From Planctomycetota bacterium (lineage in GTDB: Bacteria > Planctomycetota > UBA1135 > UBA2386), in NCBI GenBank assembly GCA_965228735.1, contig OZ245838.1, forward strand, positions 1,856,001-1,920,000: 64,000 bases of DNA, in the 5' to 3' direction. Position 1 is the first letter of the stretch; each line of letters opens with the position of its first letter. Positions 24,032 to 64,000 of this stretch are shown here, in pieces. The notes beneath the pieces are model-generated. The model searched no databases and had not been told where the DNA came from. It worked only from the letters and a program-made list of their open reading frames with translations. The position numbers and the translations under genes were made by a program.

Positions 24032-24032
24032 A

Positions 24033-35765: not shown

Positions 35766-35766
35766 C

Positions 35767-36081: not shown

Positions 36082-36359
36082 CGGTTCCCGAGGGCCTTCA
36101 GCACCTCGTCGTAGAGCTCACGGTTTCGGGTCAACGTGCCCGCCATCACCGTTTCGTGGCGGGCATTGATCTCGATCAGTTGGGCCTCGTGGCGTGCGTT
36201 GATCGCGTCCAGCTGGGCCTCATGGCGCGCTGACTGCGCGTCCATCTGCTTGGCGTGCGCCTCGGTGATCCGCTCGAGGTACTTCAGCGCGTGGAGCACC
36301 AGGAACACGATCGCCGCGATCCCCGGCATCTGCTTCGCGATCTCGACGAGCAGGTCCAT
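36078..36359 (-). CDS. Holin-like single-TM coiled-coil protein
   Basis: MDLLVEIAKQMPGIAAIVFLVLHAL then three ARHE repeats; TGATG and ATGA overlaps. Confidence 0.55.
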   Translation of the reverse strand: MDLLVEIAKQMPGIAAIVFLVLHALKYLERITEAHAKQMDAQSARHEAQLDAINARHEAQLIEINARHETVMAGTLTRNRELYDEVLKALGNR

Positions 36360-36748
36360 CAGATGCCCACCAGGATGCGCGCGCGGTAGCGCGCGGTGTA
36401 GACGACTGCCATGACCGACCAGAACGCCACGCCGACGTGGCCAATCGTGAACAGGTGGTACGGTGCCCACCAGAACGCGACGACGTTCTCGACGATGTGC
36501 ATCAGGCCGCACGCCATGATGAACGAACCGTAGACCTGACGGGCGTGCAGACTCTGCTCCGGAGTCAGGCGCGCAAGGTGTGTCGCCGACTCTGCGCCAG
36601 GCATGCGCAGGATCCACCGAATCGCGAAGTAGCTCACGCCGGTCGCGAGGTTGGCCATGATGTAGACCCACTCGAACAGCAGGTTCCACTCCATGCAGCA
36701 GCCGCGGGTCGAGCCGGTGCGCAGCAGCATCTCGAACAACATCTGCAT
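36359..36748 (-). CDS. Stand-alone ethylene-receptor-like three-TM domain
   Basis: GCCMEW...ANLATGVSYFAI...YGSFIMACGLMH...WWAPY matches the ETR1-type sensor domain. Confidence 0.75.
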   Translation of the reverse strand: MQMLFEMLLRTGSTRGCCMEWNLLFEWVYIMANLATGVSYFAIRWILRMPGAESATHLARLTPEQSLHARQVYGSFIMACGLMHIVENVVAFWWAPYHLFTIGHVGVAFWSVMAVVYTARYRARILVGI

Positions 36749-36751
36749 GCT

Positions 36752-41631: not shown

Positions 41632-42304
41632 CCCCCTCGCCTTCCGCCTCCGCCTTCCGCTGCGCCGCCACCTGCAGCAGCGCCTGAATCTGCGCCCCGC
41701 GCTCGACGTCCGTCATCTTGATCGCGGGCGCGTCGGGGTCCCCGCCGATCGCCAGCTTGTCGCCGAACGTCTTCGGCAACATCTTGCACAGCGCCCATTT
41801 GAGCGTGTCCACGTGTAGCCGCCGGTGCGCCACCATGTCCTGCTTCACGACCTTGCGCTCGAGCACGGGCATCTCGGTCTGCTCACCGTCCTCGCCGTCC
41901 TTGACGATCACCTTCGACTCCTCGGTGACGATCTCGCCGACCTGCGGATTCCTCGCGACCTCGATGAGCTCTTCGGCCCAGTTCATGGCGCGCAGCTGGA
42001 TGGCGCGCGCGTACTGCTCGGCAAACCCTTCCCGGTCCTCGATGACCCAGGTGTGCACCGTGGTCGCTGGTGGCAGGTGCTCGTCCTCGCAGATCCGCCG
42101 CACGCTCTCCGTCGGGATGCGGCGGAGGATCTCCTCGGCGATCTCCGGCGTGTAGCGCGTTGGCCGGCCGCGCGGTCGTTTCGCCGCCGGCTTCGATGCT
42201 TTACGCGCGTTACGCGTTGCGTTACGCGTCGCCTTGCGCTTCGTCGTCGCCTTCTTTCGTGGCGCCTTCTTGCGGGTCTTCTTGGTCATCGTGGACTCGG
42301 ACAC
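41621..42304 (-). CDS. terS: Terminase small subunit
   Basis: GRPTRYTPEIAEEI...SVRRIC...FAEQYARA...RLHVDTLKW. Confidence 0.85.
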   Translation of the reverse strand: MSESTMTKKTRKKAPRKKATTKRKATRNATRNARKASKPAAKRPRGRPTRYTPEIAEEILRRIPTESVRRICEDEHLPPATTVHTWVIEDREGFAEQYARAIQLRAMNWAEELIEVARNPQVGEIVTEESKVIVKDGEDGEQTEMPVLERKVVKQDMVAHRRLHVDTLKWALCKMLPKTFGDKLAIGGDPDAPAIKMTDVERGAQIQALLQVAAQRKAEAEGEGDGD

Positions 42305-42831: not shown

Positions 42832-43071
42832 CTACAGCCCCCCTCGCCCCAGCTTGGTCTCGTCGAGCTTGTGATCGCCGCACCAGTCGCGCTCGAACAC
42901 CGCGGGGAACCCGTTCATCGTCGGTGCCGCGCGCCGACAGCGCCCGAGCGCACCGCGCGCGTCGCCCGTCGTCTTCGGCTCCTTCGCGACGAACCACATG
43001 CAGCTCGAGCACGGCATGCCGGCGCTTCGGTGTACCCACGGGTCCTTCGATTCTTGCTCTTGCATCCTCAC
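42832..43071 (-). CDS. Small Cys-rich protein, similar pattern to its neighbour
   Basis: CSSC...CRRAAP...WCGDH. Confidence 0.6.
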   Translation of the reverse strand: MRMQEQESKDPWVHRSAGMPCSSCMWFVAKEPKTTGDARGALGRCRRAAPTMNGFPAVFERDWCGDHKLDETKLGRGGL

Positions 43072-45038
43072 CTCCAGTTGCTGTCCAAAAGCGCCTCAGG
43101 CGCCATCCACTGCCCACGCTCACGGCGGGCCTTGATCCACTCGCCGACGATCGCCCGCGCCCGCGGGTGATCCGGCACCTCCTGGCTCACGACCACCGCC
43201 GCAAGCCCCATCCACGACGTCGTCCCCGGGCCCTCGCTCGCACCGTCACCCTCGACGAGCTGCGACAGCTCCGGTTCCTTGCCGTCCGTTCCGGCCTCGA
43301 CGCCGACCAGCGACCAGCCGACCCAGCGGCCGTCGCGTTGACTGAACGCGCCCTCGACGACCGCGAGCGCGCCTTCCAGGCCCAGCCCGCGCATCCGCTC
43401 CTGTCCGAACGTGACGCCGAGCGACCAGGTGGCGTAGGCCGCGGCGGCCTGCTGGTACATCACCGCATTGTCGCGGCGGTTGGTGTCCTTCGTGAACCGC
43501 GCTTCGTTGCTGCGCAGGTCCCAGAGCGTCGCCGCGCCCCACTTCGGCCAGGCCAGCTGCTCGAACCGCGCGATCGCGCGCGCGCGCACCAGCTTCGCGA
43601 CCTCGCGGTCGGCCAGGCAGTGCCAAAGCTGCTCGGCTTCCCAGCACTCCCAGAGCCACTCGCGTGCTTTACCGACTCGTGTCGTCGTCAGCCGCCGGTC
43701 GAGCGTGCGGCTGTGCAGGAACAGCGCGGCGCGGTTTTCGATCTGCCACTGCAGTGCGGGGTCGCCGGTCTGGCGGTACGCCAGGTAGAGCCGGCGGGCG
43801 TAGTAGTGCTCCCACCAGCTCTCCCAGCCGTGGCGCTCCCGCTTCGTCGGGTTGCGGTCCTTGCCGAGGCCGTCGGGGCTGAACAAGCGACCTTTGCCGT
43901 CCCGGTGCGGCATGTCGTTGTAGAGCGCCAGGTCGGGGTGTGCGCCGATCAGCAGCGGGCTGCCGTCGGCTTCGCGCGGGTTGCTGCGGCGGGCGTAACC
44001 GTAGGCGATCCAGGTGTTCGTGAGTTCGGCGCCGAGGCTGGCGGCGCCAAGGCCGAGCTCGCCGCCGGGCCAACCCCAGTCCCAGTCGCGGCCGGTGCGG
44101 CGGGCGTCCTCGTAGATCCCGAACTCGTTGCGGTCCCAGGTGTCGAGTTGCTGCAGCGCTTTCTGGCCGACGGTCTGCGACCAGGTGCGTGGGTCACCGT
44201 TGCTGGCGGGCCACTGGGGGTTGCCGCGGGGCCAGGCGCGTTGCGCGGCGAGGCAGCTGATGAACGGCGCGGCTTGGGCGGAGGACGCGGCGTCGGCGTC
44301 GGGCGATGGCCAGAGGATCGTGGCCCACCTGGTGGCACGGCCGTGCCAGGTCGCGATCGTCGTGCCGGCAGGTGCGAGCTCGGCGCCGATGACGGTGGCG
44401 CCGGGCACCTCAAGGCGGAAGCCGTCGGGGACGGTGGCGGTGAGGTCGGCGACGTTCGGGTTGTTGGCGTGCGTCTGGATGCGGGCGACGGTCCAGGATT
44501 GGCCTGGGTACAGCGTCAACCAGACGTCGACGAGCAGCATGCGGCCGACGCGGGTGCGCAGGTGCACGTCGAGGCCGGCGCCGTTTCGGATCGCCGACAG
44601 GACGTGGAGCGCCCTGCCGGCCACGGTCAGAAGGGGCGGTGGCGGCGGGGGCAGTCGCGCGACGGGCTCGGGTGCCTCGCGGGGTTCGGTTGCGGTTGCG
44701 TCGGCGTCCGCATCGGGGCGGAGCTTGCCGAGGTCGATGGTCTTGGCTTCGAAGGGCGCGAGCTCGACGCGGAAGTCGATGTGGCGCAGGCCTTCGCCGC
44801 AGGGGTTGCCGAGGACGTAGCGGACGCCGTCGATGGTGCCGGTGCGCGGCACGTCGACGTCGATGGCGCGGCGGACCCAGCCGTGGAAGTGGCTGGGGGT
44901 TGCGCCGCCGGGTTTGCCGTCGTTGGCGAAATGGACCTGTTGGGCTGGGGCGAACGCGGCTGCGAGCAGCGCGATCAGCCCAGCCAGGATGCCGGCGAGC
45001 GCAGAGCGCCAGGCGGCGGGGTCTTCGTGGTCAGTCAT
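43068..45038 (-). CDS. Exported 656-aa protein, possible alpha/alpha-barrel glycan-acting enzyme
   Basis: Signal peptide LLAAAFAPA; Trp-rich; EHYY...YRQTGDP. Confidence 0.55.
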   Translation of the reverse strand: MTDHEDPAAWRSALAGILAGLIALLAAAFAPAQQVHFANDGKPGGATPSHFHGWVRRAIDVDVPRTGTIDGVRYVLGNPCGEGLRHIDFRVELAPFEAKTIDLGKLRPDADADATATEPREAPEPVARLPPPPPPLLTVAGRALHVLSAIRNGAGLDVHLRTRVGRMLLVDVWLTLYPGQSWTVARIQTHANNPNVADLTATVPDGFRLEVPGATVIGAELAPAGTTIATWHGRATRWATILWPSPDADAASSAQAAPFISCLAAQRAWPRGNPQWPASNGDPRTWSQTVGQKALQQLDTWDRNEFGIYEDARRTGRDWDWGWPGGELGLGAASLGAELTNTWIAYGYARRSNPREADGSPLLIGAHPDLALYNDMPHRDGKGRLFSPDGLGKDRNPTKRERHGWESWWEHYYARRLYLAYRQTGDPALQWQIENRAALFLHSRTLDRRLTTTRVGKAREWLWECWEAEQLWHCLADREVAKLVRARAIARFEQLAWPKWGAATLWDLRSNEARFTKDTNRRDNAVMYQQAAAAYATWSLGVTFGQERMRGLGLEGALAVVEGAFSQRDGRWVGWSLVGVEAGTDGKEPELSQLVEGDGASEGPGTTSWMGLAAVVVSQEVPDHPRARAIVGEWIKARRERGQWMAPEALLDSNWR

Positions 45039-49895: not shown

Positions 49896-49923
49896 GCGGG
49901 TTCGATTCCCGCCGCCTCCACCA
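49896..49923 (+). repeat. att core, second copy (right end of prophage 1 / left end of element 2)
   Basis: Perfect 28-bp match to 5728-5755. Confidence 0.95.
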
Positions 49924-49945
49924 TTCTCAGTTTGCTCACCGAAAC

Positions 49946-49974
49946 TCACCGGGGCGCGCAGAGCGCCCCGGTGA
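49946..49974. terminator. Hairpin between att copy and integrase 2 stop
   Basis: Perfect 12-bp stem TCACCGGGGCGC/GCGCCCCGGTGA with 5-nt loop. Confidence 0.65.
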
Positions 49975-49989
49975 ACTAGGTTACGAGCA

Positions 49990-51306
49990 CTACCCGGCGC
50001 TGCGCTCGCGCACCGACCCGCTCTGAGGATCACCCGTGCGCTGAGAATATGGTCGACTATTTGGTCGGCTCTCGGAGTCCGGGATCAGCCCCTCCACCGT
50101 CGCGATCGCGGCCGGGATCTCATTGATGAACTGCCGTAGCTTGGCGGCGTCCGTGCGCCGGTAGTGCTTGCGGGTGACCCCACCGGGGGTGTGGCGGAGG
50201 ATCGCGGCGACGATCCCGTCCGGCACCGCCTCGTCGAGCGCGTTCGCAAGCGACGTGCGCATGGCGTGCAGGTCGAGGCGCCGCCCGGCGTGATCGACAA
50301 CCGGCAGCTTGGCCCACTTCGCATCGTCCCGGATCCTCGCGGCGAGGTGGCGCGGCAGCGTCGGGTAGCCGCTCGGGTCGGGGTAGCCGACGACCAGCTC
50401 GTCATCGTGGACCGGCTTGCCGGCCTGGACACCGCGGTGTCGACGAACGTCGCGCAGCAGGTCGCGCAGTCCATCGTGCAGCGGCACCGACTGCTGCGTG
50501 CCGGTCTTAGTGATCTCCGCCGGCAGGTCGATCGTCTCGTCGGAGATCATCCCCCACCGCAGGTTCGCCAGCTCGTTGTTGCGCAGCCCGGCCAGGAACG
50601 CGATGACGACCGTGAGCGCCCGGCGCCGCGCGATCTCCATGTGCTTCTCGATGTTCGCCGGCCGGGCCCGGCTCTGCAGCGTGCGCTGGATGGCCGCCTT
50701 CGCGAGCTGGTTGACGCCCTCGGGAGTCAGGGCCTGCCGGTGCTGGCGCTGCTCCGAGGGCGTCCTGCGCAACGCTACGACCGGGTTCTTGAGGGCGCGG
50801 TCACCCTCTTCGAGCCACCGGCCAAACTGCTTCAGGAGGGACGCGTATTCGTTCCTCGTCTTGACCGTGGCGCCGCCGTCCAGAAGGCCGTTCAGGAAGC
50901 GCGTCGCCCGGTCGAGAGTCACGTCCGCAATCGACGTCGCGCGCATCCGCTTGAACGCCTTCTTCAATCGCGCGGTGACGAGCTTGACGTGCTTGTCACC
51001 CTGCTTGCGCACGCGCCGGCGAAGACCGGACCGCACGTGCTCGATGAAGTCGTCGAGGTGCTCGTCGATCGGGCGCTCGCGTTGCTCTGCGTGTGGGTCA
51101 AAGAGACCGGCAGCTTTCTTGTCGTAGTCCGCCTTCGCCGCACGCAGAAACGTGTTGGCGGCAGTCTTCGTCTTGAACCCCTCGCGCTTGGACCAGGGGT
51201 TCCGTTTGTGCCGGTTCTCGTAGCGCCGGAACTTGACCGTGAACGGCCCACGCCCCTTTGCCGGGAAGATCGAGCCGTTCCAGTCTTTGCCCGAGGAGAG
51301 CGTCAT
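49990..51306 (-). CDS. int: Tyrosine integrase of element 2
   Basis: AGLRNNE, K, LHAMRT, RH, HY; visibly similar to integrase 1. Confidence 0.93.
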   Translation of the reverse strand: MTLSSGKDWNGSIFPAKGRGPFTVKFRRYENRHKRNPWSKREGFKTKTAANTFLRAAKADYDKKAAGLFDPHAEQRERPIDEHLDDFIEHVRSGLRRRVRKQGDKHVKLVTARLKKAFKRMRATSIADVTLDRATRFLNGLLDGGATVKTRNEYASLLKQFGRWLEEGDRALKNPVVALRRTPSEQRQHRQALTPEGVNQLAKAAIQRTLQSRARPANIEKHMEIARRRALTVVIAFLAGLRNNELANLRWGMISDETIDLPAEITKTGTQQSVPLHDGLRDLLRDVRRHRGVQAGKPVHDDELVVGYPDPSGYPTLPRHLAARIRDDAKWAKLPVVDHAGRRLDLHAMRTSLANALDEAVPDGIVAAILRHTPGGVTRKHYRRTDAAKLRQFINEIPAAIATVEGLIPDSESRPNSRPYSQRTGDPQSGSVRERSAG

Positions 51307-51608
51307 GAGGCGCTCCTGGCCCGAGTCACCTTCGCCTTGACTTGCGCGCGCCAGTCGCGGCCGAGGCGCTCGGCGACGATCGCAGCCCAGTCCTGGCAGT
51401 TCGCGTAGGCCTCGACCTCGCGGGCGATGAACTGCGTCTTGCGGCCCTCGCCGTCGCCCCTCGTGGACGGCACGGTGATGCGCGGCGGGAAGTCACCGCG
51501 GGCCTCGAACTCGCGGACCGTGTTCGGACTCAGCCCCGTCACATGCGCCGCCTCGGCCAACGAGAAGCGGAACTTGGGGAGATCGATCGAGGACTTCTTC
51601 GCCTTCAT
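51303..51608 (-). CDS. AlpA/excisionase-like HTH (start about 51608)
   Basis: SLAEAAHVTGLSPNTVREFEARGDFPPRI. Confidence 0.75.
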   Translation of the reverse strand: MKAKKSSIDLPKFRFSLAEAAHVTGLSPNTVREFEARGDFPPRITVPSTRGDGEGRKTQFIAREVEAYANCQDWAAIVAERLGRDWRAQVKAKVTRARSAS

Positions 51609-51770
51609 CTTCGGCACGAGGGCCACCTTGCGCGACTGCGCGGCTGCGGTCCGGCGCCGAGCTACCCGGCGCGCTGGGAACGCACGCGGCGACCGTGCCG
51701 CATGCAGTCCACCATCTATTCCGCGCCGCGGGAGAATTCCGCCGCATGTTGATCGGTGCGCTTGCATGAC

Positions 51771-52751
51771 TCACACCTCCAGGATCGCCAGTGCCCGCCG
51801 CCGCTCGGTCGCTTGGCGATCGATGTATACCTGCGCCGCGCTCAACGACTTCCAACCACCGGTCGCCATCAGGGTCGCGATCGACCCCTGCCCCGCGACG
51901 AAGGTCGCTGCCGAATGCCGCAGCCCGTGCGGGCGCACGATCGTCTTGATGCCCGCCTCCTTTGCCCTGGCGCGCACCATGCGGCGCACGCCCTCGGCTC
52001 CGATCGCCGTGATCGCGTTCGTCGGGGCCGCCGCGTCGAGGCGCTGGAACAGCGGGCCGGCGACGTTCCCGCGGTAGGTGAACCACCGGCGCAACGAGTC
52101 GGCGCAGCCCTTGCTGATGAGGACGCGCTGCCGCTCCCGCTGCCCCTTCCGCTTCGCCAGGACGACCGGACCATCGGGGTGGTCGAGCTGCACGTGGCGG
52201 CGCAGCAGGCTCGTGACCTCGGATACGCGCAACGCCGCGGTGTAGAGCAGGCGAAGGATCGCCGCGTTCCGCTTGGCCAGCGGGGAGCCGTTGTCGGCGT
52301 CCTGGTCGAGGCGCTCGATCATCCGCTCGACGTCACCGCGGTGCGGGCCGCTGCGATCCTCCCGGGGTTCAACGCGCGGGGCGACCTGTTCCAGCCGCCA
52401 CGTGATGAGCCCAGCACGCCGACAGGCCTTGACCAGGGACGCGACGCCGCTGACCCGCAGCTTCGCCGTCGCGGTCGACTTGCCGGCGTCGAGCAAGTGA
52501 TCTCGCCAGTCCCCGACAAGCGCATGGGCTTTGCCGGCGCCGGCGGTGACGAGCAGTTCGAGCGCGCGCTCGGGCGGCGCTTCGGTGTCGGACAACGCCC
52601 AGCCCGCGAACGCGCGCATCGACCGCGTGTAGGACCGCGCGCTCTCGGGTGAGAGGGCAGCGAGCCAACGGCGAATGATTTCCTGTGGCGTCGTGTCGAT
52701 CGCCGCGAGCGCGGCAGGCGTCAGACCCGTCGACTTCGGAACGAGGCTCAC
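51771..52751 (-). CDS. Second, Xer-like tyrosine recombinase
   Basis: LRVSEV, KRKG, PHGLRHS, GGW, VY. Confidence 0.9.
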   Translation of the reverse strand: MSLVPKSTGLTPAALAAIDTTPQEIIRRWLAALSPESARSYTRSMRAFAGWALSDTEAPPERALELLVTAGAGKAHALVGDWRDHLLDAGKSTATAKLRVSGVASLVKACRRAGLITWRLEQVAPRVEPREDRSGPHRGDVERMIERLDQDADNGSPLAKRNAAILRLLYTAALRVSEVTSLLRRHVQLDHPDGPVVLAKRKGQRERQRVLISKGCADSLRRWFTYRGNVAGPLFQRLDAAAPTNAITAIGAEGVRRMVRARAKEAGIKTIVRPHGLRHSAATFVAGQGSIATLMATGGWKSLSAAQVYIDRQATERRRALAILEV

Positions 52752-53209
52752 GACTCACCTCCCGGCAGGGCGTGGAACGACTCGTCCGCGAAGCTGAAGA
52801 ACCGACCGTCGCCGATCACGAGGTGGTCCAACACCGGGATGCCGAGCAGGTCGCCGACCTCGCGCAGACGGCGAGTGACACCTCGATCATCGGCGCTCGG
52901 TTCTGGATCCCCGGACGGATGGTTGTGCGCGATGACGATCGCGGTTGCTGCGAGGGCGACAGCAGGACCGAAGACTTCGCGCGGATGCGCGGGCGACGCG
53001 TCGGCCGTGCCGACGTGCGCATCGTGAACCGCGATCGCCCGGTGTCGAGCGTCGAGGTAGACAGCCGCGAATCGCTCGCGCGGGTCGTCGCGCAGAAACT
53101 CCTGCAGCAGGCCGACCACGTCGCCGGCGCGACGCACAGCGTAGGGCTGCTGCGCTCGTTCGCGGACGAGAGACAGGCGCACGCGGCGCCACGTGCGACG
53201 CTCCTTCAC
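52748..53209 (-). CDS. radC: RadC-like JAB/MPN protein
   Basis: HPREVF, AHNHPSGDPEPSADD, LDHLVIG. Confidence 0.92.
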   Translation of the reverse strand: MKERRTWRRVRLSLVRERAQQPYAVRRAGDVVGLLQEFLRDDPRERFAAVYLDARHRAIAVHDAHVGTADASPAHPREVFGPAVALAATAIVIAHNHPSGDPEPSADDRGVTRRLREVGDLLGIPVLDHLVIGDGRFFSFADESFHALPGGES

Positions 53210-53472
53210 TGCTGCACCTCCGCGAGCTGCGCGTCGATCGACTCGACCTCGGCCATCGCGCGGGCCCGCAGCTCGGCGAGCAAGCGCGGCAGGCCCTTCG
53301 TGCTCTGGGCGATGAGGATTCCGCGCTGCTCGCGAATAGCGAACGTCGCGTAGTCGACCGCAGCACGGAGCGTGCCAATGTAGACGCTCGTGAGATCGTG
53401 GCCGGTGGCTGCGGCGGCGATGACGGTCCGGTGAGTCGACTTCGAGAGGTCGACATTCTTCGTCTTGGTCAT
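53206..53472 (-). CDS. Hypothetical protein
   Basis: AAGGAAG RBS; overlaps radC start. Confidence 0.6.
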   Translation of the reverse strand: MTKTKNVDLSKSTHRTVIAAAATGHDLTSVYIGTLRAAVDYATFAIREQRGILIAQSTKGLPRLLAELRARAMAEVESIDAQLAEVQQ

Positions 53473-53703
53473 GGTGCTTCCTTGGTCAGGAGCACCGAGA
53501 CACGGCGCACGGGCGCCGCGGAGCTAGGTTCGCCGGACGATCGTCCGAACGCACATCTGCGGGAGCCGACAGGACGCCCGCATCACCACCGTGCCGCTCC
53601 AGGCCGGTTGGTCGTCAACTCGCAGTTGACATCTCGATGCGCTGCCGAGGTTACCGCGCCCTTCGGAGAGTACAAGGCGGTAGCGCCCGCCTGGCGGAAG
53701 TGG

Positions 53704-54204
53704 CTACGGCTTCTTCGCGGCGTGAGCTTCCATGTCCTGGCGAAGTTGCTCCCGGACTGCGACGCTGCGCTTGTTGAGGAACAGCAGTTTCCCCAAGCGG
53801 TCCGCGATCAACTTCTTCTTGACCGGGAACATGAGCTTGCCGGATTGCTCTTCGATCGTCCCCGACCGCAGCTCTCCCATCAGCTCCGTCACCTGATGCC
53901 GGATCATCATCGCCGCTTGGAATGCGTCGTTGCCTTCGTTGGCTAGCAATGCGCGCTGTCCAGCCCGCTCTGCAAGCTCCGTCATCCCGATCACAGTGAG
54001 GCCGCGATCTTCATGGGTCTCATAGATCTCAGCAGCTGGCTTCCCGGCGGCCAAGTCTGCCTCGATAGCGAGGACCAACTCTTGCGCTGCTTCGGCTGCG
54101 ACGATCGCTGCATCAATAGGGTTCTCCGGCATCCACCCTGATTGCCCTGGCCGGGCGACACAGGCCGCAAGAAGGATCGGGAACGTCAAGAGCAACCAAC
54201 GCAT
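53704..54204 (-). CDS. Predicted lipoprotein (cargo)
   Basis: MRWLLLTFPILLAAC lipobox; lower GC. Confidence 0.65.
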   Translation of the reverse strand: MRWLLLTFPILLAACVARPGQSGWMPENPIDAAIVAAEAAQELVLAIEADLAAGKPAAEIYETHEDRGLTVIGMTELAERAGQRALLANEGNDAFQAAMMIRHQVTELMGELRSGTIEEQSGKLMFPVKKKLIADRLGKLLFLNKRSVAVREQLRQDMEAHAAKKP

Positions 54205-54385
54205 GAGCCCAAGAAGATCGGCGCCACCGTTGCCCCGCAATCGAAACCGCCCATTTCAAACGAGGCCCGATACGGTCGCCGTCGAAGAGAAGACCAGATG
54301 TCATGAAGGGCGTGCTGATCGTGATCGGCGTGATCTTTCTGTTCAACCTCGCCCGCGGCTGCAGCAGGTAGCCCCCCTTAGACCC

Positions 54386-55048
54386 TCACTGACTCGCTCT
54401 TCGCTCGTCTCGCTCGGCACGAAGCTGGATGAACTGCCGGATCGAGTCCGCCAACTTGAACCACTCACCTCGGACGCGGTGCTCGGCGAACGCGTCGTGC
54501 AAGAGGCTCTCTGTCTCCCGAGTGCCTCGGAACGAATAGAGCACCTCAAGGGACTCGCTCGGGTTGTCGGTCATCATCTGCCCGAGACGGGCCTTCACGC
54601 TGCGCGCGAGACCGATCTTCACGAGGTCGGTCGAAGTGTCCGCAATGAAGTAGATGAAGCCCGGTTTGTGCAGCCGGGATCCCTGGCCGCGTTGCCGACG
54701 GAGACGATCCCGGCGCTCCATCAGTTCCGTTTCGCGTTCGAGCAGGTCAAGCCCGCGCTTCCCGTCCAGGATCGGGGCGAGGAGGTTGATCAGCTCGCGG
54801 AGGCGCATGTGGTGCGCCGGCGGCCGGCTGCCGTTCTCGGTGCCCAAGATGGCCTGCTCCTCGCGCATCAGGACGCCGTCGGCATGTGCCTCCTCGGGCG
54901 TGTCGCGGGATGAACCGACCACTGTCTTCCCCGCGATGACCGCCCAGCCGCGATACTTGTAGCCATCCTTCCGGCGAAGGCGCTGAACGTAGGGCGGCAG
55001 CTTGGCGCCGTCTCCCAGGTCCGAGCTGCCGTTCTCGGAGTCGCTCAT
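54386..55048 (-). CDS. GIY-YIG / T5orf172-like domain protein
   Basis: GFIYFI...VKIG...RL...ESLLH..F...RVRGEWF. Confidence 0.8.
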   Translation of the reverse strand: MSDSENGSSDLGDGAKLPPYVQRLRRKDGYKYRGWAVIAGKTVVGSSRDTPEEAHADGVLMREEQAILGTENGSRPPAHHMRLRELINLLAPILDGKRGLDLLERETELMERRDRLRRQRGQGSRLHKPGFIYFIADTSTDLVKIGLARSVKARLGQMMTDNPSESLEVLYSFRGTRETESLLHDAFAEHRVRGEWFKLADSIRQFIQLRAERDERRASQ

Positions 55049-55336
55049 GCGGCACAGCCTACGCGAAGCGCGCGCAGCGCCGACCCGAGCAGTTCTATGC
55101 ACGCAGCCCGACTCAGATCACCGCGGAATTCCATCGCCGCGCGGCATAGGTTCCGCGCCGGCAGCGATCCCACATCGCGGAAAAAAGTTCGCGGCCGCGT
55201 TTCGTGAGAGCGGTCGAGCAATGGGTTTTGAAGAGCCGACTTACGTGATACCACTGTCTACCCAAGTGTCTACTGTGCGGTAGTTTAGAGGACTGCGTCC
55301 GTCGACCCTCGGCTCCAACGGCATAGATGGTAGGCC

Positions 55337-55621
55337 ATGCCACTATCGACTCCGAACGAGCCATCACCGGCCGTCCAAGAGCTACGCCTCCGCCTCGAAG
55401 CCGGACAGCTTGAACCCGTCGGCGCTGTCATCGAGCGCGTCCTCGGCGAAGCCATCTCGGGCGTCACCCTGGCCCGCTGGTGCGAGGTCGGCCGAGCCGG
55501 CATCCGAATCCCCACCGTGCGCGGCGCGCGCCTGAAGCGCCTGACGACGGAGAGCGCCTTCCGCCACTGGCTCTCGGTGACGAGCGACCTCGTCGAGGAG
55601 GAGGGCTGCGACGATGCGTGA
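55337..55621 (+). CDS. DUF1580-like winged-HTH protein
   Basis: TLARWCEVGRAGIRIPTVRG...TTESAFRHW. Confidence 0.65.
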   Translation: MPLSTPNEPSPAVQELRLRLEAGQLEPVGAVIERVLGEAISGVTLARWCEVGRAGIRIPTVRGARLKRLTTESAFRHWLSVTSDLVEEEGCDDA

Positions 55622-55829
55622 GCACGAGGAGCTGCTCCACGTCGGTGACCTGGAGCCCGTCGAAGTCGTCGTCGAGCGCGTGATGGGTCACGTGGATCCG
55701 TTCCACCTTCGGCGCTGGATCGAGCACGGACGCGCCGGACGCATCGTGTTGCCGACCGTCGTCGAGGGTGGAGAGAGGATGACGACCGAGGCGGCCCTGC
55801 GCTCGTGGCGCGATGCAACGTCGGCCTGA
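55614..55829 (+). CDS. DUF1580-like winged-HTH protein, tandem paralogue
   Basis: LRRWIEHGRAGRIVLPTVVEGGERMTTEAALRSW. Confidence 0.65.
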   Translation: MREHEELLHVGDLEPVEVVVERVMGHVDPFHLRRWIEHGRAGRIVLPTVVEGGERMTTEAALRSWRDATSA

Positions 55830-55849
55830 AGGCGAAGAGGGAGACGGAG

Positions 55850-58015
55850 ATGACCGAGATCGACTACACGCAGACGGCAGAGGGGATCGAGATCCCCGAC
55901 CGCCTGAAGCAGCAGCACCGGTGGTGCCGGTGGAGTCTGCAGCGCAACGAGCAAGGGCGGATGACCAAGAAGCCCGACCGCTCGACCTCCGACGTGGAGG
56001 CGCTGTCGCCCTTCGAGCCGGGCGCGATGTCAGACACCCGAGGAATCGGGTTCGTTTTCACCGACGGTGTCGAGGACGACGAGGGCTGCACGCTCATCGC
56101 GATCGACATCGACGCGTGCCGCGTGCCGACGCGCAACGCGAACGACGAGTCAGGCGAGGACGCCGGGCAACTGACCGATTGGGGTCGTGAGGTCATCGAG
56201 ATGTGCGGCCACAGCTATACCGAGGTGTCGCCGTCGGGCACAGGGCTGCGCGTCTTCGTGTTCGTGCGCGCCCTCAACCGCGAGATCACCACGAAGATGC
56301 GCGCGCCCGGCGCAGCCGCGCCCGGTGTCGACAAGAACCCCGAGGTTCAGCTTTTCGGCGTTCACGGCGCGGCTCAATACGTGACCGTCACCGGGCAGCG
56401 CCTGCTCGCAACGTCGCCCGACATCCTCACGCTCGACAACCTCGACGAGCTGATCGCGCAGTATCGCCTCGACCAGGACTACAAGGAGCGCGGCGACGGG
56501 TCACTGCCCGAGGGCAATGGCGAGCGGCGAACGCTGGAGCAGATCGCGGAGCGGGTGCGGGACGCCTCCTGGAAGTGCGAGCACCTGCTGAAGGGCGATT
56601 GGGATCACGAGGATCTCGACTACGCCAGCCCGAGCGAAGGCTACGCCGCGATCGTTGGGTTCGTGCTGAAGGCCGCGAACGGGCACGGCGACCTCGCCCT
56701 CGACTTCCTGATGGACTTGCCCGTGTGGGCTGCGGGCACCGTGCGCGAGAGCGCCGACCCCGGCAAGTATGGGCGGCGAGCATGGGTCCACGGCGAGGTG
56801 TGCCGGCTCCACCAGGGCAATGCAGACCCTGACCCGGCGCGCGTGTTTGAGCCGCTCGGTGAGCTGCCGCCCGAGGAGCGTCCCCCGTCGCACAAGCGGG
56901 CGCGCATAGTCACGTTCGAGGAGTTTGACCGGAGCGTTCAACCCGAGCGATTCCTGATCGACGGTCTGCTCCCGCGCACGGGACTCGCGCAGTTCTTCGG
57001 CGACCCCGGCAGCGGCAAGACACCGTTTGCGATGAACGTCGCGCTCGCGGTCGCGCTCGGCGAGGCGCGGTTCTTCAACCGCGACGTCGACCACCACGGC
57101 AAGGTGCTCTACATGGTCGGCGAGGACGCCAACGGGCTGGGACACCGGTTGCGCGCGGAGCTGAATGCCCGAGGGCTAACCCGAACAGATCTCCAAGGCC
57201 GCCTGTTCCTCACGACTCAGCCCGGGCAGCTCTGCGACGAGGAGGACGCCGCGCGGTGGCGCGACGAGATCCACGCTTTCGGCGAGTTCGCGATGGTCGT
57301 GATCGACACGCAGTCGAGGAACTTCGGCGCCGGCAACGAGAACGACACGCAGGACATGACGCGCTTCGTGAACAACCTCGCGCGGCTCGCCGAGCAACTC
57401 CAGCTCCTGGTCGTCCTGGTTCACCACACGGGCCACAAGTCGAAGGAGCGCGCCCGCGGCAGCTCGGTGATGTTCGGCGCTCTCGACGCGTCCTACGAGG
57501 TCACGAAGGAGGAGATCGGCGACATCAAGGCGGTCGTCGCGAAGTCCACCAAGGCGAAGAATTGGGCTAACCCTTCGCCGCTGCGCGGGACGCTCGTGCC
57601 GGTCACGCTCGACATCGACGGCAAGGGGCGCCCAATCACCGCGATCACATTGAGCCAGAAGGCTCCAGAGGATCAGCCGCTCGGCGACCTCGTCGCGGCC
57701 GAGTTGGAGGACGACGCGGACCTGCGCGCCCTGCTGGCTTTCTTCGTCGGCAGCGAAGGGGAGTGGGTTTCTCGGGCGAAGGCGCGCTCGGTCACCCGAC
57801 TCAGCGATCACAAAGTGAAGGCCAAGACGAGGCGCCTCGTGGAAGTTGGGCTCCTGGAGATCATCGCCGAGAGCGCGACGCGGGGCCGTCAATACCGACT
57901 GCCGCAGGCTCCCAATTCCGAGGGTCAGAGGGGCTCTGAAGCTGGCGATTTCGGGCCGCCAGCTCAGTTGGAGCTGGCGATTTCACCAGCTAGCGCCAGC
58001 TCGGAGGGCCAGTGA
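55850..58015 (+). CDS. Primase-polymerase + AAA_25 (RepA-type) helicase
   Basis: IDID, YTEVSPSGTG, TVTG; Walker A GDPGSGKT, VVIDT, VHHTG, RGSS. Confidence 0.9.
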   Translation: MTEIDYTQTAEGIEIPDRLKQQHRWCRWSLQRNEQGRMTKKPDRSTSDVEALSPFEPGAMSDTRGIGFVFTDGVEDDEGCTLIAIDIDACRVPTRNANDESGEDAGQLTDWGREVIEMCGHSYTEVSPSGTGLRVFVFVRALNREITTKMRAPGAAAPGVDKNPEVQLFGVHGAAQYVTVTGQRLLATSPDILTLDNLDELIAQYRLDQDYKERGDGSLPEGNGERRTLEQIAERVRDASWKCEHLLKGDWDHEDLDYASPSEGYAAIVGFVLKAANGHGDLALDFLMDLPVWAAGTVRESADPGKYGRRAWVHGEVCRLHQGNADPDPARVFEPLGELPPEERPPSHKRARIVTFEEFDRSVQPERFLIDGLLPRTGLAQFFGDPGSGKTPFAMNVALAVALGEARFFNRDVDHHGKVLYMVGEDANGLGHRLRAELNARGLTRTDLQGRLFLTTQPGQLCDEEDAARWRDEIHAFGEFAMVVIDTQSRNFGAGNENDTQDMTRFVNNLARLAEQLQLLVVLVHHTGHKSKERARGSSVMFGALDASYEVTKEEIGDIKAVVAKSTKAKNWANPSPLRGTLVPVTLDIDGKGRPITAITLSQKAPEDQPLGDLVAAELEDDADLRALLAFFVGSEGEWVSRAKARSVTRLSDHKVKAKTRRLVEVGLLEIIAESATRGRQYRLPQAPNSEGQRGSEAGDFGPPAQLELAISPASASSEGQ

Positions 58016-58134
58016 TGCAAGTCGCGGGAAACACGTACTTTAAGCTGGCGACACACAACCGCCAGCTAACCGCCAGCCATAGCTGGCGGGCTGGTGTGCC
58101 CCTTATAGAGGGGCACCAGCTCCGCCAACCAGCT
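57940..58134. repeat. Iteron cluster, putative replication origin
   Basis: About 12 copies of C(G/A)CCAGCT-like octamers in both orientations, plus hairpin GTGCCCCT-TATAG-AGGGGCAC. Confidence 0.75.
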
Positions 58135-58634
58135 AGCGACCTCGGACAACCCCACCCCTCCGGTGGCGAATCGCTGCAAAGCGAGCACGCGAAGAGGGCC
58201 ACTCGATCGCGATGCAGCGCGACGCGAGCGGATCGCCGCGAGCGATCCCCGCGCATCCGGTGTCGCCACTCTGGCGCCCGACGCATTAACCCGCAGGGCG
58301 CGCGCCCGGCAGCCCGAGCAACTTGGTCATGGGCTCCGGCCGCTGGCGCGCGGCCCTGCACTTCCTCTTTGGCGAGGCGCAGCCCGGACGGGGTGCTCCG
58401 TTTCCATCCCGCACGCGATCGGCTGGTCCCCGATCCGGTTGCCGGGCTGCGCCTCGCCTTCTTCTTCCGCGCTACGCCAGCGCGTGCTGCGCGATCTCGC
58501 GCCGAGGCACCCAGGAGAGGTTGCGACCAGCAGAGCCGCGCACAGCGACGCTCACGAATTCACAGCACCTATGTCTCGGCACGGCGCCGGTCGACCGCCC
58601 TCCGCGTGACAAAACTCAAGTTACCCAAAGCCCA

Positions 58635-59060
58635 ATGAACTCCGAACCAGTTCGCTTCGATCCTCTCGACTACCCCGTCGGGCACCACCTCGATCCGCAC
58701 ATCACCGGCCGGCCCCGTCCGCGTCCGGGTGAGGTCGAGTTCGATCTCGACACGCGTCGGTGCCCGCGGTGTCGGCCCGATCTCTTCCCGGGCGACGTCG
58801 CGCTCGCCGCGCCGGTCTGCTGCGACGGCCCTGCGATCATGCGGTTCGACCTTCGTGCGGCCCGCGCCTACCGCATCTGGCGGGGCTGGCCGACGGAGGA
58901 GGATGTCCTCGTGCTGGCGTTCGTCGTTGGCGACGAGCCCTATCCGAGCCGCCGCCGCGGCGCGCGGGAACCCATGGATGCGCAAGTCATCTGCGCGCTC
59001 GTCGCCGGCGACCCGGTGCCGACGGGCGCCAACATCACCGACTACCCGGCGCGCGCATAG
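58635..59060 (+). CDS. Hypothetical protein with CxxC
   Basis: Protein-like from MNSEPVRF; CPRC. Confidence 0.45.
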   Translation: MNSEPVRFDPLDYPVGHHLDPHITGRPRPRPGEVEFDLDTRRCPRCRPDLFPGDVALAAPVCCDGPAIMRFDLRAARAYRIWRGWPTEEDVLVLAFVVGDEPYPSRRRGAREPMDAQVICALVAGDPVPTGANITDYPARA

Positions 59061-59099
59061 CCGCGGGCGCCATCAGCCACACAGCAACACGACAGAACT

Positions 59100-59888
59100 A
59101 TGACGACAGCAAATCTACAAGCCCGGCTCCGAGAGCGCGAGGCATCCCAGCGGCGCCAGAAGGCCGATCAGATCGCCCAGGCCCAGCGAACCTACTCCGA
59201 CCTCGTGATCGCCGCCTACCGCGGCGAGGTCACCAGCGAGGCCGACGTCGAGCAGCTCGAAGCAGCGATGGCCGTGCTCGATCTGGCGCCCCACAACTTC
59301 GACGAAGACGTCGCTGCCCTCGCGGTGCTGAAGCAGACCCGCGACAACGTCTCGGTCGCCCAGGCCGGCGAAGCCGTCGAAGCCGCCCGCGGAGCGGAGA
59401 CCGACGGCAGAAGGCGCGCGAAGCAGATGCGCGAAGAAGCCGACCAACTCGAACGGGCGCTCGCCGCAGACGTCGGAACCGCCAAGGCCGGGGTCCGGGA
59501 GACGCGCGCGAAGCTCGCGTATGCCGATCGCCTCGTAGCCACCCTCAGCGAGCACGGCGTCGTCGTCCCGGCCGATGCGCAACCGGTGACGACGGCGACC
59601 GAACGTGTGCCGCACCGCGTCATCGAGGTCGCCCAGATCGACAACTGCCTGCACGAGCCGGGCGCGGTCGTCTTGTGGCCCGCGGGCGAGCCGCACGCCT
59701 GCCTCCAACCCATCGAGCCGGGTCGCGAGGGCGACCCGTGGGTGCCTCCTCCCGCGCCGCCGTTGCCGCCCACGAGCAGCTCGGTGCTGGCGGAAGCACG
59801 CCGCGACGTCGAGGCCGCCCTCGTGCGCGGTGAACCGGTCCTGCCGAATGTCTTTGGCGGCTTGCCGAAGTCCGAGGAGGAGAAGTAG
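59100..59888 (+). CDS. Coiled-coil hypothetical protein
   Basis: 262 aa, helical, directly upstream of the scaffold homologue. Confidence 0.65.
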   Translation: MTTANLQARLREREASQRRQKADQIAQAQRTYSDLVIAAYRGEVTSEADVEQLEAAMAVLDLAPHNFDEDVAALAVLKQTRDNVSVAQAGEAVEAARGAETDGRRRAKQMREEADQLERALAADVGTAKAGVRETRAKLAYADRLVATLSEHGVVVPADAQPVTTATERVPHRVIEVAQIDNCLHEPGAVVLWPAGEPHACLQPIEPGREGDPWVPPPAPPLPPTSSSVLAEARRDVEAALVRGEPVLPNVFGGLPKSEEEK

Positions 59889-59890
59889 AG

Positions 59891-60514
59891 ATGACTGACC
59901 AAGAACTCACGCTCGCGCAGCGCATGTTCGGTCGTCCTGAGGGTGCCCAGGACGCTGCACCCGACGATGCCCTCGTGCCCGACACCGCGAAGGACGACGC
60001 GCCAGAGGAGCGCAGCGTGGCATCAAGGATGTTCGCGAAGCAGGAGCCAGTCGATTCCAACGACACCGAGGACGCCGAGGGCACCGACGACCCCGGTGAT
60101 GAAACCCCGGGCGACGTTGACGATGAGCAGTCGGGGTTCCGCCGTCGCTATCAACTGCAGGTCGAGGGCACCGAAGTCGACCCGCGGATGAACGACACGA
60201 TCCTGGACGCAGCCCACGAGGCCGGCATGAGCCAGGACGCCACGGAGAAGTTCGTCGAGAACATCGCGCCGCGACTGATCGCCGAGCATCAGGCGCAGGC
60301 TCGAGCGCGATTCAACGAGTGGACAGAAGCGACGAAGTCGGACGCCGAGATCGGCGGCGCTCGCCTCGACGAATCCATCGGTGTCGCCAAGCGCACCCTC
60401 GACGCCGTCAAAGTCTCGCCCGAGTTCCGCCAGTTCATCTTCGACTCGGGCCTCGGGAATCACCCGGACTTCGTTCGCCTCTTGGTCCGGGCCGGCAAGC
60501 GCATGGGGGTTTGA
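59891..60514 (+). CDS. Homologue of the prophage 1 scaffolding protein
   Basis: YQL...GMSQD...DAEIGG...SGLGNHP...AG aligns by eye to 32679-33371. Confidence 0.75.
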   Translation: MTDQELTLAQRMFGRPEGAQDAAPDDALVPDTAKDDAPEERSVASRMFAKQEPVDSNDTEDAEGTDDPGDETPGDVDDEQSGFRRRYQLQVEGTEVDPRMNDTILDAAHEAGMSQDATEKFVENIAPRLIAEHQAQARARFNEWTEATKSDAEIGGARLDESIGVAKRTLDAVKVSPEFRQFIFDSGLGNHPDFVRLLVRAGKRMGV

Positions 60515-60516
60515 TC

Positions 60517-60891
60517 ATGCCCAAGAAGAATTCCAAGGGATCCGATCCGCCGCAGCAGATCGCGCTCTCGGGAAACCGCGCAAAGGACGGCAAGTTCCTT
60601 CCGGGTCATAGCCTCCCAGGCCCCGGACGGCTGCGCGGCTACGACCCTGTGAAGGCGGCGGTCGCGGCGTGCGAGCGCAACGGCACGACGCTCGAACACG
60701 AGCTTGGCGAAGTCTTGTTCACGCTCATCTCGCTGGCCAAGAAGGGCGACGTCGCCGCTGCACGCGAAGTCCTGAGCCGCACAACCGCTGACATGAAGTG
60801 GACCGCATCGAATGACGGGAAGTTCACGGTGACGGTCGTCAACACCGGCGTACCAACCGGGAACGACCAGATCGAGGAACTGCTCTCATGA
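60517..60891 (+). CDS. TerS-like protein (DUF5681-type N-terminus)
   Basis: DGKFLPGHSLPGPGR...AKKGDVAAAREVL; ATGA overlap with terL. Confidence 0.65.
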   Translation: MPKKNSKGSDPPQQIALSGNRAKDGKFLPGHSLPGPGRLRGYDPVKAAVAACERNGTTLEHELGEVLFTLISLAKKGDVAAAREVLSRTTADMKWTASNDGKFTVTVVNTGVPTGNDQIEELLS

Positions 60892-62285
60892 AACCACCAC
60901 CGCAGATCGATCTCGGCTACCTACCACGCGACTGGCAGCGTGAGTGCCACCAGCTCAAGCGCAAGAACCGGTTCGCGGTGCTGGCGCTCCACCGCCGCGC
61001 CGGCAAGACGCTCTGGGCGTTGATGGAACTCGTCCATGCGGCGCTGCAGTTCGACAAGGAGCTGGGCCTGTTCTTCTTCGTCGCCCCGACCCTGAAGCAG
61101 GCGAAGGCGATCGCGTGGCGCGAGCTGAAGCGCATCCTCGAACCACTCCGAATCGCCGGCCTCGTTGAGATCCGGGAGACGGAGTTGACAGTCGAGTTCA
61201 AGCACAACGGCGCGCGCATCTCGCTGTTCGGCGCCGACAACCCGGACGCCATGCGTGGCGTTCGCCTCGATGGCGTCGTCATCGACGAGGTCGGCCACGT
61301 TCCACCGGACACCTGGTTCTCGATCCTCCAGCCGACGTTGTCCGACCGGCTCGGGTGGGCAGTGTTCATCGGGACGCCGAATGGGATCAACCTCTTCAGC
61401 GAGTTGTTCTTCAAGGCGACGGACGAGGACGAGTGGCACGCTGGTCGCTACACGGTGAGCGAGACACAGGCCCTCGACGCCAAGGAGGTCGAACGCCTCC
61501 GGCGCGACATGCCAGACACCGCGTTCGCCCGCGAGTATCTCTGCGACTTCTCGGCCGGCGGTGAAGACCAACTGATCTCGCTGTCCGACGTCGAATCCGC
61601 CGCGCAGCGTGAGTGGACAGAGCGCGAGGTCGCCGGTGCGCCGCGCATCCTCGGTGTCGACGTCGCCCGATTCGGTTCGGACCGCAGCGTCGTCATCAAG
61701 CGCCAGGGCCTGCACACCTGGAAGCCGATCGTCTACAAGGACGTCGACCTGATGACGCTCGCGAGCGCGGTGGCGAGCATCATCCAGCAGTGGCGCCCGG
61801 ACGCCGTGTTCGTCGACTCAGGCGGCGTTGGTGCCGGACTGGTGGACCGACTGCGGCAGCTCCACTTCGACGTGCATGAGGTCAACTCGTCGAGCAAGGC
61901 CGGCAAGCCGGACGCGTTCACGAACCGACGTGCAGAGTGCTGGTCTGCGATGGCCGACTGGGTCCGCGGCGGCGGGTCGATCCCGAACGACACCGCGTTG
62001 AAGCAGGAGCTGGCAACGCCCGTCTACTCGTTCGACGCGAGCGGCCGGAAGAAGCTCGAATCGAAGGACGACATCAAGAAGCGCCTCGGTGGCGGTAGCC
62101 CCGACACCGCGGATGCACTCGCGCTCACGTTCGCGAGCCCAGTGACACCAGCCACCGAGGTCGACCGCGTCCTGGAACAGTTCGACGTCCACCGTCCGCG
62201 TGCGAAGACGTATGGCGACCACGACCCCTTCGCGGTCCTCGACGAGGTCGAGAAGAGCCACGATCCGTTCGCCTGGAGGCGCTGA
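60888..62285 (+). CDS. terL: Terminase large subunit of element 2
   Basis: HRRAGKT, VIDE, IGTPNG, GVDVARFGSD, SPDTADALALTFA. Confidence 0.93.
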   Translation: MKPPPQIDLGYLPRDWQRECHQLKRKNRFAVLALHRRAGKTLWALMELVHAALQFDKELGLFFFVAPTLKQAKAIAWRELKRILEPLRIAGLVEIRETELTVEFKHNGARISLFGADNPDAMRGVRLDGVVIDEVGHVPPDTWFSILQPTLSDRLGWAVFIGTPNGINLFSELFFKATDEDEWHAGRYTVSETQALDAKEVERLRRDMPDTAFAREYLCDFSAGGEDQLISLSDVESAAQREWTEREVAGAPRILGVDVARFGSDRSVVIKRQGLHTWKPIVYKDVDLMTLASAVASIIQQWRPDAVFVDSGGVGAGLVDRLRQLHFDVHEVNSSSKAGKPDAFTNRRAECWSAMADWVRGGGSIPNDTALKQELATPVYSFDASGRKKLESKDDIKKRLGGGSPDTADALALTFASPVTPATEVDRVLEQFDVHRPRAKTYGDHDPFAVLDEVEKSHDPFAWRR

Positions 62286-62484: not shown

Positions 62485-63045
62485 ATGCCAACTCCAACGA
62501 AAGTCCCCGAACGATACTGGACCACCTGCTGGGCGACCCTCAGGTTGCGGAGCATCAAGTGGTGCACCAAGTTCGGATTCCCCTACCCCTGTGGCCTGAT
62601 TCGATTCACGATCCGATTGCCATACCCTTGCCGAAAAACACGAATGGTCGATGGCTGGTGCTATCACTGCCAACCTCTTGAGACACGCGGCTCGGGTTTG
62701 TTCCGTTGCCGGCAAGAATGCTGCGAGAACGGAGTCCTCTACGAGCGTTCGATCTGGTGTGCCGGAGGGCGCCTCCGGAAACTCGTTGCAGACCTTTGCG
62801 TCAAGGACAAGCTCTCCTCCGCAGGTTCCTGTGGCTCACCTAACAGCGGTCCCACCACGTTCGAAGAAGCACTGGAGAAGGCGCCGATGCCGGTTGAATC
62901 TCGAGCGACCCGCGGACTTGGTGACATCGTCGAAAAGATCATCCGATTCATGACGCTCGGATTGGTCGAGCCGTGCGCTGCCTGCAAGACACGGCAGGCT
63001 CTACTGAACAGGCTGTGGCCCTTCAGACGCATGAGGCCAGCCTGA
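62485..63045 (+). CDS. Cys-rich hypothetical protein
   Basis: Many Cys; C-terminal GLGDIVEKII...CAACKTRQALLN; low GC. Confidence 0.55.
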   Translation: MPTPTKVPERYWTTCWATLRLRSIKWCTKFGFPYPCGLIRFTIRLPYPCRKTRMVDGWCYHCQPLETRGSGLFRCRQECCENGVLYERSIWCAGGRLRKLVADLCVKDKLSSAGSCGSPNSGPTTFEEALEKAPMPVESRATRGLGDIVEKIIRFMTLGLVEPCAACKTRQALLNRLWPFRRMRPA

Positions 63046-63304
63046 AAAGAGCGGGGCGTTCGCCGATGCGATGCAGGAACAGCGGCGGGCTGCGCTACGC
63101 GCGCCCGCCGACCAGGCGAAAGCAAGCATCCCGCCTAGCGTCACGATGCGGCGACCGCGCGCCGGATCTACGAGACGTCTACCCACGTCGACCGCGCGGA
63201 GGCACGGGCCGCGTGGCTCGAAGCGGCCGAGGACTTGAGGTGGTGCGGTGCGGCGATCGCGGAGTGCAGCACCACATGTTCACTCCCGGTGCTACGATCG
63301 TCTA

Positions 63305-63979
63305 ATGGGCACCAACAAGGAGCAGCGAGGGACCGACTATGACCTGGACAAAAGGTTCGAGAACTACTGCTTCTTGAGACTTTGCATGATCGATCTCAGC
63401 GCCGCGAAGCGCCGCGTTGCGCAGTTAGAACCGCTGAAAGACGACAGCGTTCGCATCCCCCTGCTTGAGAACGTTGTGGTCGTCTACGCCCGCCCGTTCT
63501 CGGGGAACAAGGGGAGAGTGCAAGGCAAGCACCGCCTGCCGAAGTCGCACATACCGAGCGATTCTCTGGATCTGCATCGAGAGCTAATCGCACTTCGAAA
63601 CGAGCTGTTCGCCCACAGCGATGCGACGTTCCACGACCCGGTGGTCATGCGAAACATCGGGCCGCCGGAAGCACCATTGCATCCAGTGCGGTTTCGGGTC
63701 GCCGACTTCCAGAGTCTGTCGACGCGGATTCCTGACCTTCGAACGCTGTTCGAAGGTGTCGAGGCTATTGTACGAAGGGCAGTAGACGCGGCCCATCGAG
63801 ACCCTTGGTTCGCCGATGCGGCGAAAGCGGGGAAGCTCGAACACACGATTCACATGGGCTCGTTCAACTTTGCTGGAAAGGGCCCGGGCACCTACACCAC
63901 TCCCTATCTTGTAGACATGGGGGCGACGACTGAGGTCGCGCGAGATTCGTCGGCAGAAGATGATGAGGCGAGCGAGTAG
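63305..63979 (+). CDS. HEPN-like protein, candidate defence RNase
   Basis: VVYARPF...LRNELFAHSD (R-x5-H); low GC. Confidence 0.6.
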   Translation: MGTNKEQRGTDYDLDKRFENYCFLRLCMIDLSAAKRRVAQLEPLKDDSVRIPLLENVVVVYARPFSGNKGRVQGKHRLPKSHIPSDSLDLHRELIALRNELFAHSDATFHDPVVMRNIGPPEAPLHPVRFRVADFQSLSTRIPDLRTLFEGVEAIVRRAVDAAHRDPWFADAAKAGKLEHTIHMGSFNFAGKGPGTYTTPYLVDMGATTEVARDSSAEDDEASE

Positions 63980-64000
63980 CGACGCGCTTATTCCGAGGCA

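Follow-up and report, generated by a model that had tools for sequence, protein, structure and literature searches.

In a 64,000-nucleotide stretch of the genome of a Planctomycetota bacterium (C1:1856001-1920000 of a single 7.19-Mb contig, OZ245838.1 of assembly GCA_965228735.1; hereafter the window), we found an integrated element of 16,210 bp, element A, that is probably a satellite of BPP-1/epsilon15-type podoviruses. It resembles the phage-inducible chromosomal islands (PICIs) and would bring its own scaffold and its own terminase (TerS and TerL), while using the shell and portal of a helper phage. Described satellites either borrow the large terminase of the helper, as PICIs, P4 and PLEs do, or build a whole head, as those PICIs that form capsids (cf-PICIs) do; element A would sit between these types, with its own motor and a borrowed shell. 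To our knowledge, podovirus satellites have been little studied. Below, the neighbour is the prophage that adjoins A, and B, C and D are sister elements in the same genome.

Element A is a complete element bounded by attachment sites (att) and without shell, portal or tail genes. The 3′ end of a tmRNA gene at 5404-5755 of the window recurs at 49896-49923 and 66080-66105 (blastn), and these repeats thus mark off two elements in tandem, the neighbour (44,196 bp) and A. The left att of A (49896-49923, forward strand) repeats 28 bp of the tmRNA 3′ end and also forms the right end of the neighbour, and the right att, of 26 bp, lies at 66080-66105 (C1:1922080-1922105), around 2 kb beyond the end of the window. 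An earlier reading made from the sequence only had noted no capsid, portal or tail gene in the window and had proposed following the contig rightwards to the next att copy; this observation extends to the right att, with no head genes before it. The 3.8 kb from TerL to that site contain five open reading frames (ORFs) with no match to head, portal or tail families in PHROGs, and tblastn of five proteins from the structural region of the neighbour (the major capsid protein (MCP), the portal and three small genes) against the whole of A gave nothing at E 0.1. Contigs from two public runs, X3 and X4, which may include the source sample itself, cover A unbroken with both att sites and zero differences.

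The large terminase TerL of A (60888-62285, forward strand; phrog_2, 1.5e-51) has its Walker A, Walker B, motif C and three nuclease Asp motifs all intact. It retains 203 of the 231 columns conserved in 60 relatives (0.879, compared with 0.883 for the TerL of a phage from the same genus), on a scale whose leave-one-out range for those relatives is 0.865-1.0, with a median of 1.0. Its 119 best relatives are 58-64% identical to it, and many are found on contigs of around 40 kb, while the TerL of the neighbour shares 32% identity with it, confined to the C-domain. We surveyed the loci of these relatives twice, in 90 loci (80 viral and 10 of 26 genomic), 54 of them with at least 3 kb downstream, and in 83 loci, 34 of them with at least 3 kb downstream. 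A portal homologous to that of the neighbour follows TerL in 50 of the 54 and in 33 of the 34 qualifying loci; the exceptions are two phages in which scaffold and MCP come immediately after TerL, two genes that are broken and a single orphan pair of TerS and TerL. These surveys support the conclusion that the TerL lineage of A goes with BPP-1-type portals and capsids. Two loci considered as portal-less, L148 and L151, were rejected as such because both hold broken TerLs. The orphan pair (L254:9768-11305) is surrounded by host genes; neither a portal nor an integrase was seen there, and it is likely a prophage remnant. A C-terminal [YH]DP[FY] motif is doubled in the TerL of A and in 4 of the 119 relatives, one of which, P0005, found on an 18,288-bp contig, is the sister of the TerL of A (FastTree 0.975). 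In one genome (G040), the TerL query found ten matches, several of them as tandem pairs.

Overlapping the start of TerL, an ORF of 124 aa (60517-60891, forward strand) is the likely TerS of A. Family scans gave it no TerS match, and its nearest relation is DUF5681 (E 0.097; 0.95 in the atlas). A DUF5681 homologue lies directly upstream of TerL in all three viral loci found to have one (L187, L188 and L189), a position that points to DUF5681 as a TerS family.

The scaffold of A (59891-60514, forward strand) belongs to the BPP-1/epsilon15 family (phrog_458, 4e-30), of which the only other match in the genome is the scaffold of the neighbour. In the phage members of this family, the C-terminal tail is made up of a linker and an A-x-x-[LM]-[YF]-type motif; the scaffold of A stops where this tail starts, and tail-like motifs are found near its N-terminus, at residues 5-14 and 40-49. 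In a matrix built from 17 distinct phage C-terminal motifs, with the anchor present in 26 of 28 scaffolds and a background of 234,284 host windows, these two windows have p values of 1.8e-4 and 1.4e-3. The scaffolds of B, C and an element in a congener (genome G002) each have two N-terminal windows as well (p 4e-5 to 1.4e-4 for the best and 4e-4 to 2.5e-3 for the second); such windows score in all four satellite scaffolds tried, and the two-window pattern occurs in 2 of 549 host proteins. According to PMC12409344, CpmB of the Staphylococcus aureus pathogenicity islands (SaPIs) has a short motif in common with the helper scaffold and has been proposed to prevail over it in competition and alter the size of the head. 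By its position and by analogy with CpmB, the moved motif of A may bind the capsid protein, and its two copies could allow the scaffold of A to outcompete that of the helper.

The third component of the cassette is a coiled-coil protein of 262 aa (59100-59888, forward strand) without a family match, modelled as four long helices followed by a small beta domain (predicted local distance difference test score, pLDDT, 88.7). It is the family marker common to A, B, C, D and the congener element, and 28 representatives were found at E 0.001 among 1.84 billion proteins. Its position makes it a candidate capsid-size or assembly factor. It is a long helical satellite protein in a packaging cassette and of similar size to P4 Sid and PLE TcaP (PMC10945586), but the sequence and fold searches listed no match to Sid, Psu or TcaP. 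Its identification as one of them was not supported: a PDB sequence search gave 0 matches at E 10, Foldseek against PDB and BFVD gave 0 at E 0.001, and a VIA wide fold search gave only generic helices, none at Z 8 (Z at most 6.7). The nearest named atlas cluster is Psu (0.78), which is a weak lead. Homology of the beta domain to the neighbour gene after the MCP was likewise rejected (hhalign probability 2%).

The sister elements show how these components vary within one genome. Element B (7,563 bp, tRNA-Ala, L005:9000-16600) and element C (13,856 bp, tRNA-Asp, L006:2500-16400) are att-bounded and carry a cassette of the coiled coil, a mini scaffold of 130-135 aa, a TerS (PF18932, 3.5e-10, in B) and a TerL C-domain that has lost the catalytic Asp motifs. 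These C-domains are 35-37% identical to the TerL of the neighbour and group with it (ultrafast bootstrap 100), while the TerL of A goes with BPP-1-type phage TerLs, in a midpoint-rooted tree of 22 rows and 184 columns. Given that the isolated TerL C-domain of SPP1 binds the portal, as PMC3592435 reports, it is plausible that the dead domain in B and C is a portal decoy or adaptor. Element D (17,415 bp, tRNA-Leu, 55-bp att; L181, G000:C1:1280386-1297800) carries lambda-type parts. Besides the coiled coil, it has a TerS of phrog_57, an S49 protease-scaffold, a small gene resembling one for a virion protein and another, of 695 aa, that is tape-measure-like; no MCP, portal or TerL was seen among the called genes. 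It may be a satellite with its own tape measure. The congener element has an integrase, a XerC-like gene, the coiled coil, a mini scaffold and TerS, followed, before the contig end cuts it, by two short ORFs ending in the TerL-tail HDPF motif (L044:9970-12007); a separate phage contig of the same genome holds a TerL 54% identical to that of A and a portal 40% identical to that of the neighbour. The sisters thus form a series within one closed genome, from a full TerL to a dead domain that may bind the portal. A further tRNA-Leu-integrated region (G000:C1:1335707-1351529) has an integrase, a primase-helicase and a TerS-like ORF, and is broken up by transposases.

From the borders, gene content, intact TerL motifs, portal and capsid linkage, moved motif and sisters, we infer the following as the most likely course. 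Element A would excise once a BPP-1-type phage is active, presumably upon helper induction, and would replicate from its iterons with its own primase-helicase. Its scaffold would compete for the helper capsid protein and steer assembly, perhaps towards smaller heads, with the coiled coil possibly taking part. Its own TerS-TerL motor would then fill the heads while docked on the helper portal, perhaps through the TerL C-terminus. If we take the BPP-1 head to be T=7, a T=4 head would hold around 19 kb by hand arithmetic (44.2 × (4/7)^1.5). With element A, one can test whether a helper portal accepts a foreign TerL, and whether assembly is redirected simply by relocating and duplicating a capsid-binding motif.

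A broader proposal, to which we give somewhat less than even chances, is that A and its sisters are one undescribed modular satellite family, marked by the coiled coil, that changes its set of hijacking genes according to the helper. Element A would take over podovirus heads with a complete foreign terminase and a scaffold that is circularly rearranged and has two copies of the motif, two sisters would bring the dead TerL C-domain of the resident prophage lineage as a portal decoy or adaptor, and the fourth member would bring a lambda-type TerS, a protease-scaffold and its own tape measure. If this were true, satellites could in general beat the helper in competition by carrying its binding motifs (the scaffold motif and the TerL tail) in duplicate, and a single cell would see four such satellites competing.

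The sisters also raise the question of whether the TerL of A packages DNA at all. It could serve mainly to block the portal or poison the motor, with the DNA of A packaged by its own TerS and the TerL of the helper, as in classical PICIs; B and C retain only a dead C-domain, the congener element has only short ORFs ending in HDPF, and an HDPF-type motif is doubled in the TerL of A. We consider this unlikely, as the ATPase and nuclease motifs of that TerL are intact, its conservation equals that of a phage TerL, and the tree indicates that it was gained separately from the remnants in B and C. With perfect att cores of 26-28 bp, an intact integrase, primase, iteron cluster and TerL, and a packaging cassette without frameshifts (66.7% GC; GC at third codon positions 0.79-0.87), it is also quite improbable that A is a former satellite that has become an immobile anti-phage island whose cassette only spoils helper assembly, a fate that would fit the absence of an excised form in public contigs, the same sequence across several runs and the accessory genes without an assigned role. 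Very improbable, and already largely refuted, is the alternative that A is what deletion left of an ordinary BPP-1-like prophage after loss of its portal, capsid and tail: its TerL is close to phage TerLs, orphan or broken TerL loci exist (L254, L148 and L151) and some such phages have an AAA primase-helicase shortly upstream of TerL, but A retains an intact integrase and two intact att sites, the scaffold is rebuilt rather than broken, TerS and the coiled coil are common to independent att-bounded elements, and in the surveyed loci every scaffold match lies downstream of TerL and never upstream, so that no deletion in these phages could yield the order scaffold-TerS-TerL. The sequence-only reading had named portal, capsid and tail genes beyond 64000 or an origin as such a remnant as grounds for abandoning a satellite; we looked for both, and neither was borne out, the gene order of the relatives being different.

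Several results weigh against our reading of A as a satellite with its own scaffold and terminase. An orphan TerS-TerL pair without a portal in 1 of 34 loci (L254) means that remnants do occur. The TerS call draws on gene order and on a model of low confidence (pLDDT 62). The scaffold motif was spotted by eye ahead of testing, its HMM form is not significant (E 0.035-0.066), the C-terminal motif of the neighbour scaffold itself falls outside the top three matrix windows of that protein, and the coiled coil also has one matrix window (p 3e-4). No excision joint was found and depth is flat across 4 runs of assembled contigs, a material that drops rare forms. The search for the cassette in other genomes that the sequence-only reading had proposed retrieved no second element with a full scaffold and a full TerL: scaffold and coiled-coil scans of viral contigs gave none, TerL scans of them returned phages, and class- and phylum-level searches gave no second full-TerL locus. 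The neighbour was also rejected as donor, both of the scaffold of A (20% identity, the lowest among 36, with the best at 30-32%) and of its TerL, which identity and the tree place in another lineage.

In the same searches, of 339 class genomes, 11 gave matches to the TerS query and 8 to a three-row coiled-coil profile, mostly weak ones, and among 10 loci opened, the cassette was seen only in G002. A region of around 7.5 kb between two integrase genes (L184/L051, G334:C398:1-8200) has a full TerL from a different lineage (phrog_2, 2e-25), a DUF5681 TerS and a DnaB-AAA primase; no capsid or scaffold was seen there.

By its gene content, the neighbour (5728-49923, reverse strand) is a complete BPP-1-like prophage and a candidate helper. 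We put the odds that it is the cognate helper of A at about even, because it is of the right family and has a common att site, whereas the TerL relics that match it are in B and C, and the parts of A stem from another lineage, found in the congener phage. The proposal that A lies beside a podovirus and would build heads from a BPP-1-like helper with its own scaffold and terminase agrees with the gene content, the TerL lineage, the scaffold family and the complete neighbour, but this particular neighbour is a candidate helper only.

Compared with known systems, A is closest to the PICIs and SaPIs, with which it has in common an integrase, a candidate small regulator, a primase-replicase, a capsid-morphogenesis gene, a likely TerS, and cargo after the packaging genes, in 16 kb; like a PICI, it is a chromosomal island with att borders. 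It differs in having TerL and two recombinases and in that its morphogenesis genes are a podovirus scaffold homologue and a coiled coil. De Sousa et al. (2023, PMC10085698) present the PICI model of SatelliteFinder and give TerL as specific to cf-PICIs; A, which does not lack a large terminase, is therefore PICI-like in its working but is not filed here as a PICI. With cf-PICIs, as described there, A has in common that a PICI-like backbone is joined by a TerL and a likely TerS of its own, but between its att sites it has no capsid, portal, protease or head-tail connector, and it would need a helper head and not just a tail. The competing scaffolds CpmB and Rcm (PMC12409344) differ in that the scaffold of A is, by sequence, a true homologue of the phage family with an N-terminal and doubled motif, and in that A has its own TerL and fits a Gram-negative-type podovirus helper. 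Element A shares the phrog_458 scaffold family and the TerL lineage with BPP-1 and epsilon15 (PDB 3j4u and 3j40), but these phages have the order TerS-TerL-...-portal-...-scaffold-MCP and a C-terminal scaffold motif, and A has no portal, MCP, tail or scaffold placed before an MCP. No P4 delta, epsilon or alpha or PLE core match appeared in general Pfam and PHROGs scans, which were not aimed at these genes. An inverse layout, with MCP and scaffold but no terminase, is described in PMC13669383. We found no capsid-less satellite with TerS, TerL and scaffold described in the mostly open-access main texts covered, in agreement with the earlier impression of an undescribed gene set. However, a new class would be too strong a term, since satellite competing scaffolds and a satellite TerL are each known; the novelty of A lies in combining scaffold and TerL in the absence of a capsid, in the relocated motif and in the series of sisters.

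The remaining genes of A are mostly as the sequence-only reading had them: the integrase, primase-helicase, coiled coil, scaffold, TerS-like gene and TerL are all in place. The tyrosine integrase (49990-51306, reverse strand; phrog_1, 7e-31) retains R240, H347-x-x-R350 and the C-terminal H/Y and is 34% identical to that of the neighbour. The supposed AlpA (51303-51767, likely start 51626, reverse strand) is indeed a helix-turn-helix protein, but is only AlpA- or excisionase-like (phrog_66, 5e-6), with no AlpA family match in family scans; of the AlpA, MerR and Stl regulators of PICIs, HTH_17, MerR_1 and DUF1580 are all below cut-off. Three reverse-strand genes had been overlooked: a second, XerC-like tyrosine recombinase (51771-52751), 53% identical to its counterpart in C and possibly a concatemer resolvase, a RadC/JAB protein (52748-53209; PF04002, 2e-39) and an accessory MUG113/T5orf172-domain protein (54386-55102). 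Two small paralogous ORFs (55337-55829, forward strand) with weak DUF1580 matches are, by their place at the PICI regulator position, candidate regulators. The primase-polymerase/AAA_25 helicase (55805-58015, forward strand; AAA_25 1e-32, phrog_906 2e-37) provides the primase-replicase module of a PICI. The predicted iterons, which are the likely origin, lie at 57940-58121, where AGCTGGYG occurs nine times, counting both strands; no other 200-bp stretch of the 7.19-Mb genome, with its 961 matches, is as dense in this motif. A 17-bp perfect inverted repeat (58371-58458) lies 3′ of them, and an ORF of 141 aa without a family match is at 58635-59060 (forward strand). The cargo (62485-64000, and on to 66080; five ORFs without structural family matches) is lower in GC, as claimed, but mildly so (62.0%, compared with 66.7% in the cassette and 69.4% in the genome).

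In the neighbour, the integrase is at 6978-8195, tail and internal virion genes at 15074-30556, the MCP at 31636-32655, the scaffold at 32679-33371, the portal at 36752-38455, TerL at 40060-41631 and TerS at 41621-42289. The MCP is the only phrog_212 match found in the genome and matches PDB 3j4u at E 6e-77 and 3j40 at E 2e-58, which we take to be the BPP-1 and epsilon15 entries. The prophage also holds a tRNA-Met(CAT) at 9974-10049, a 578-aa protein without a PHROG match and small membrane-like ORFs between portal and scaffold (33368-36752), and a 656-aa orphan at 43068-45038. Immediately beyond the right att of A lies a multi-copy insertion-sequence transposase (window 66353-67590, L001:6353-7590), which is split by a frameshift in this assembly and has one extra base in public contigs, with a depth several- to twentyfold above that of its flanks.

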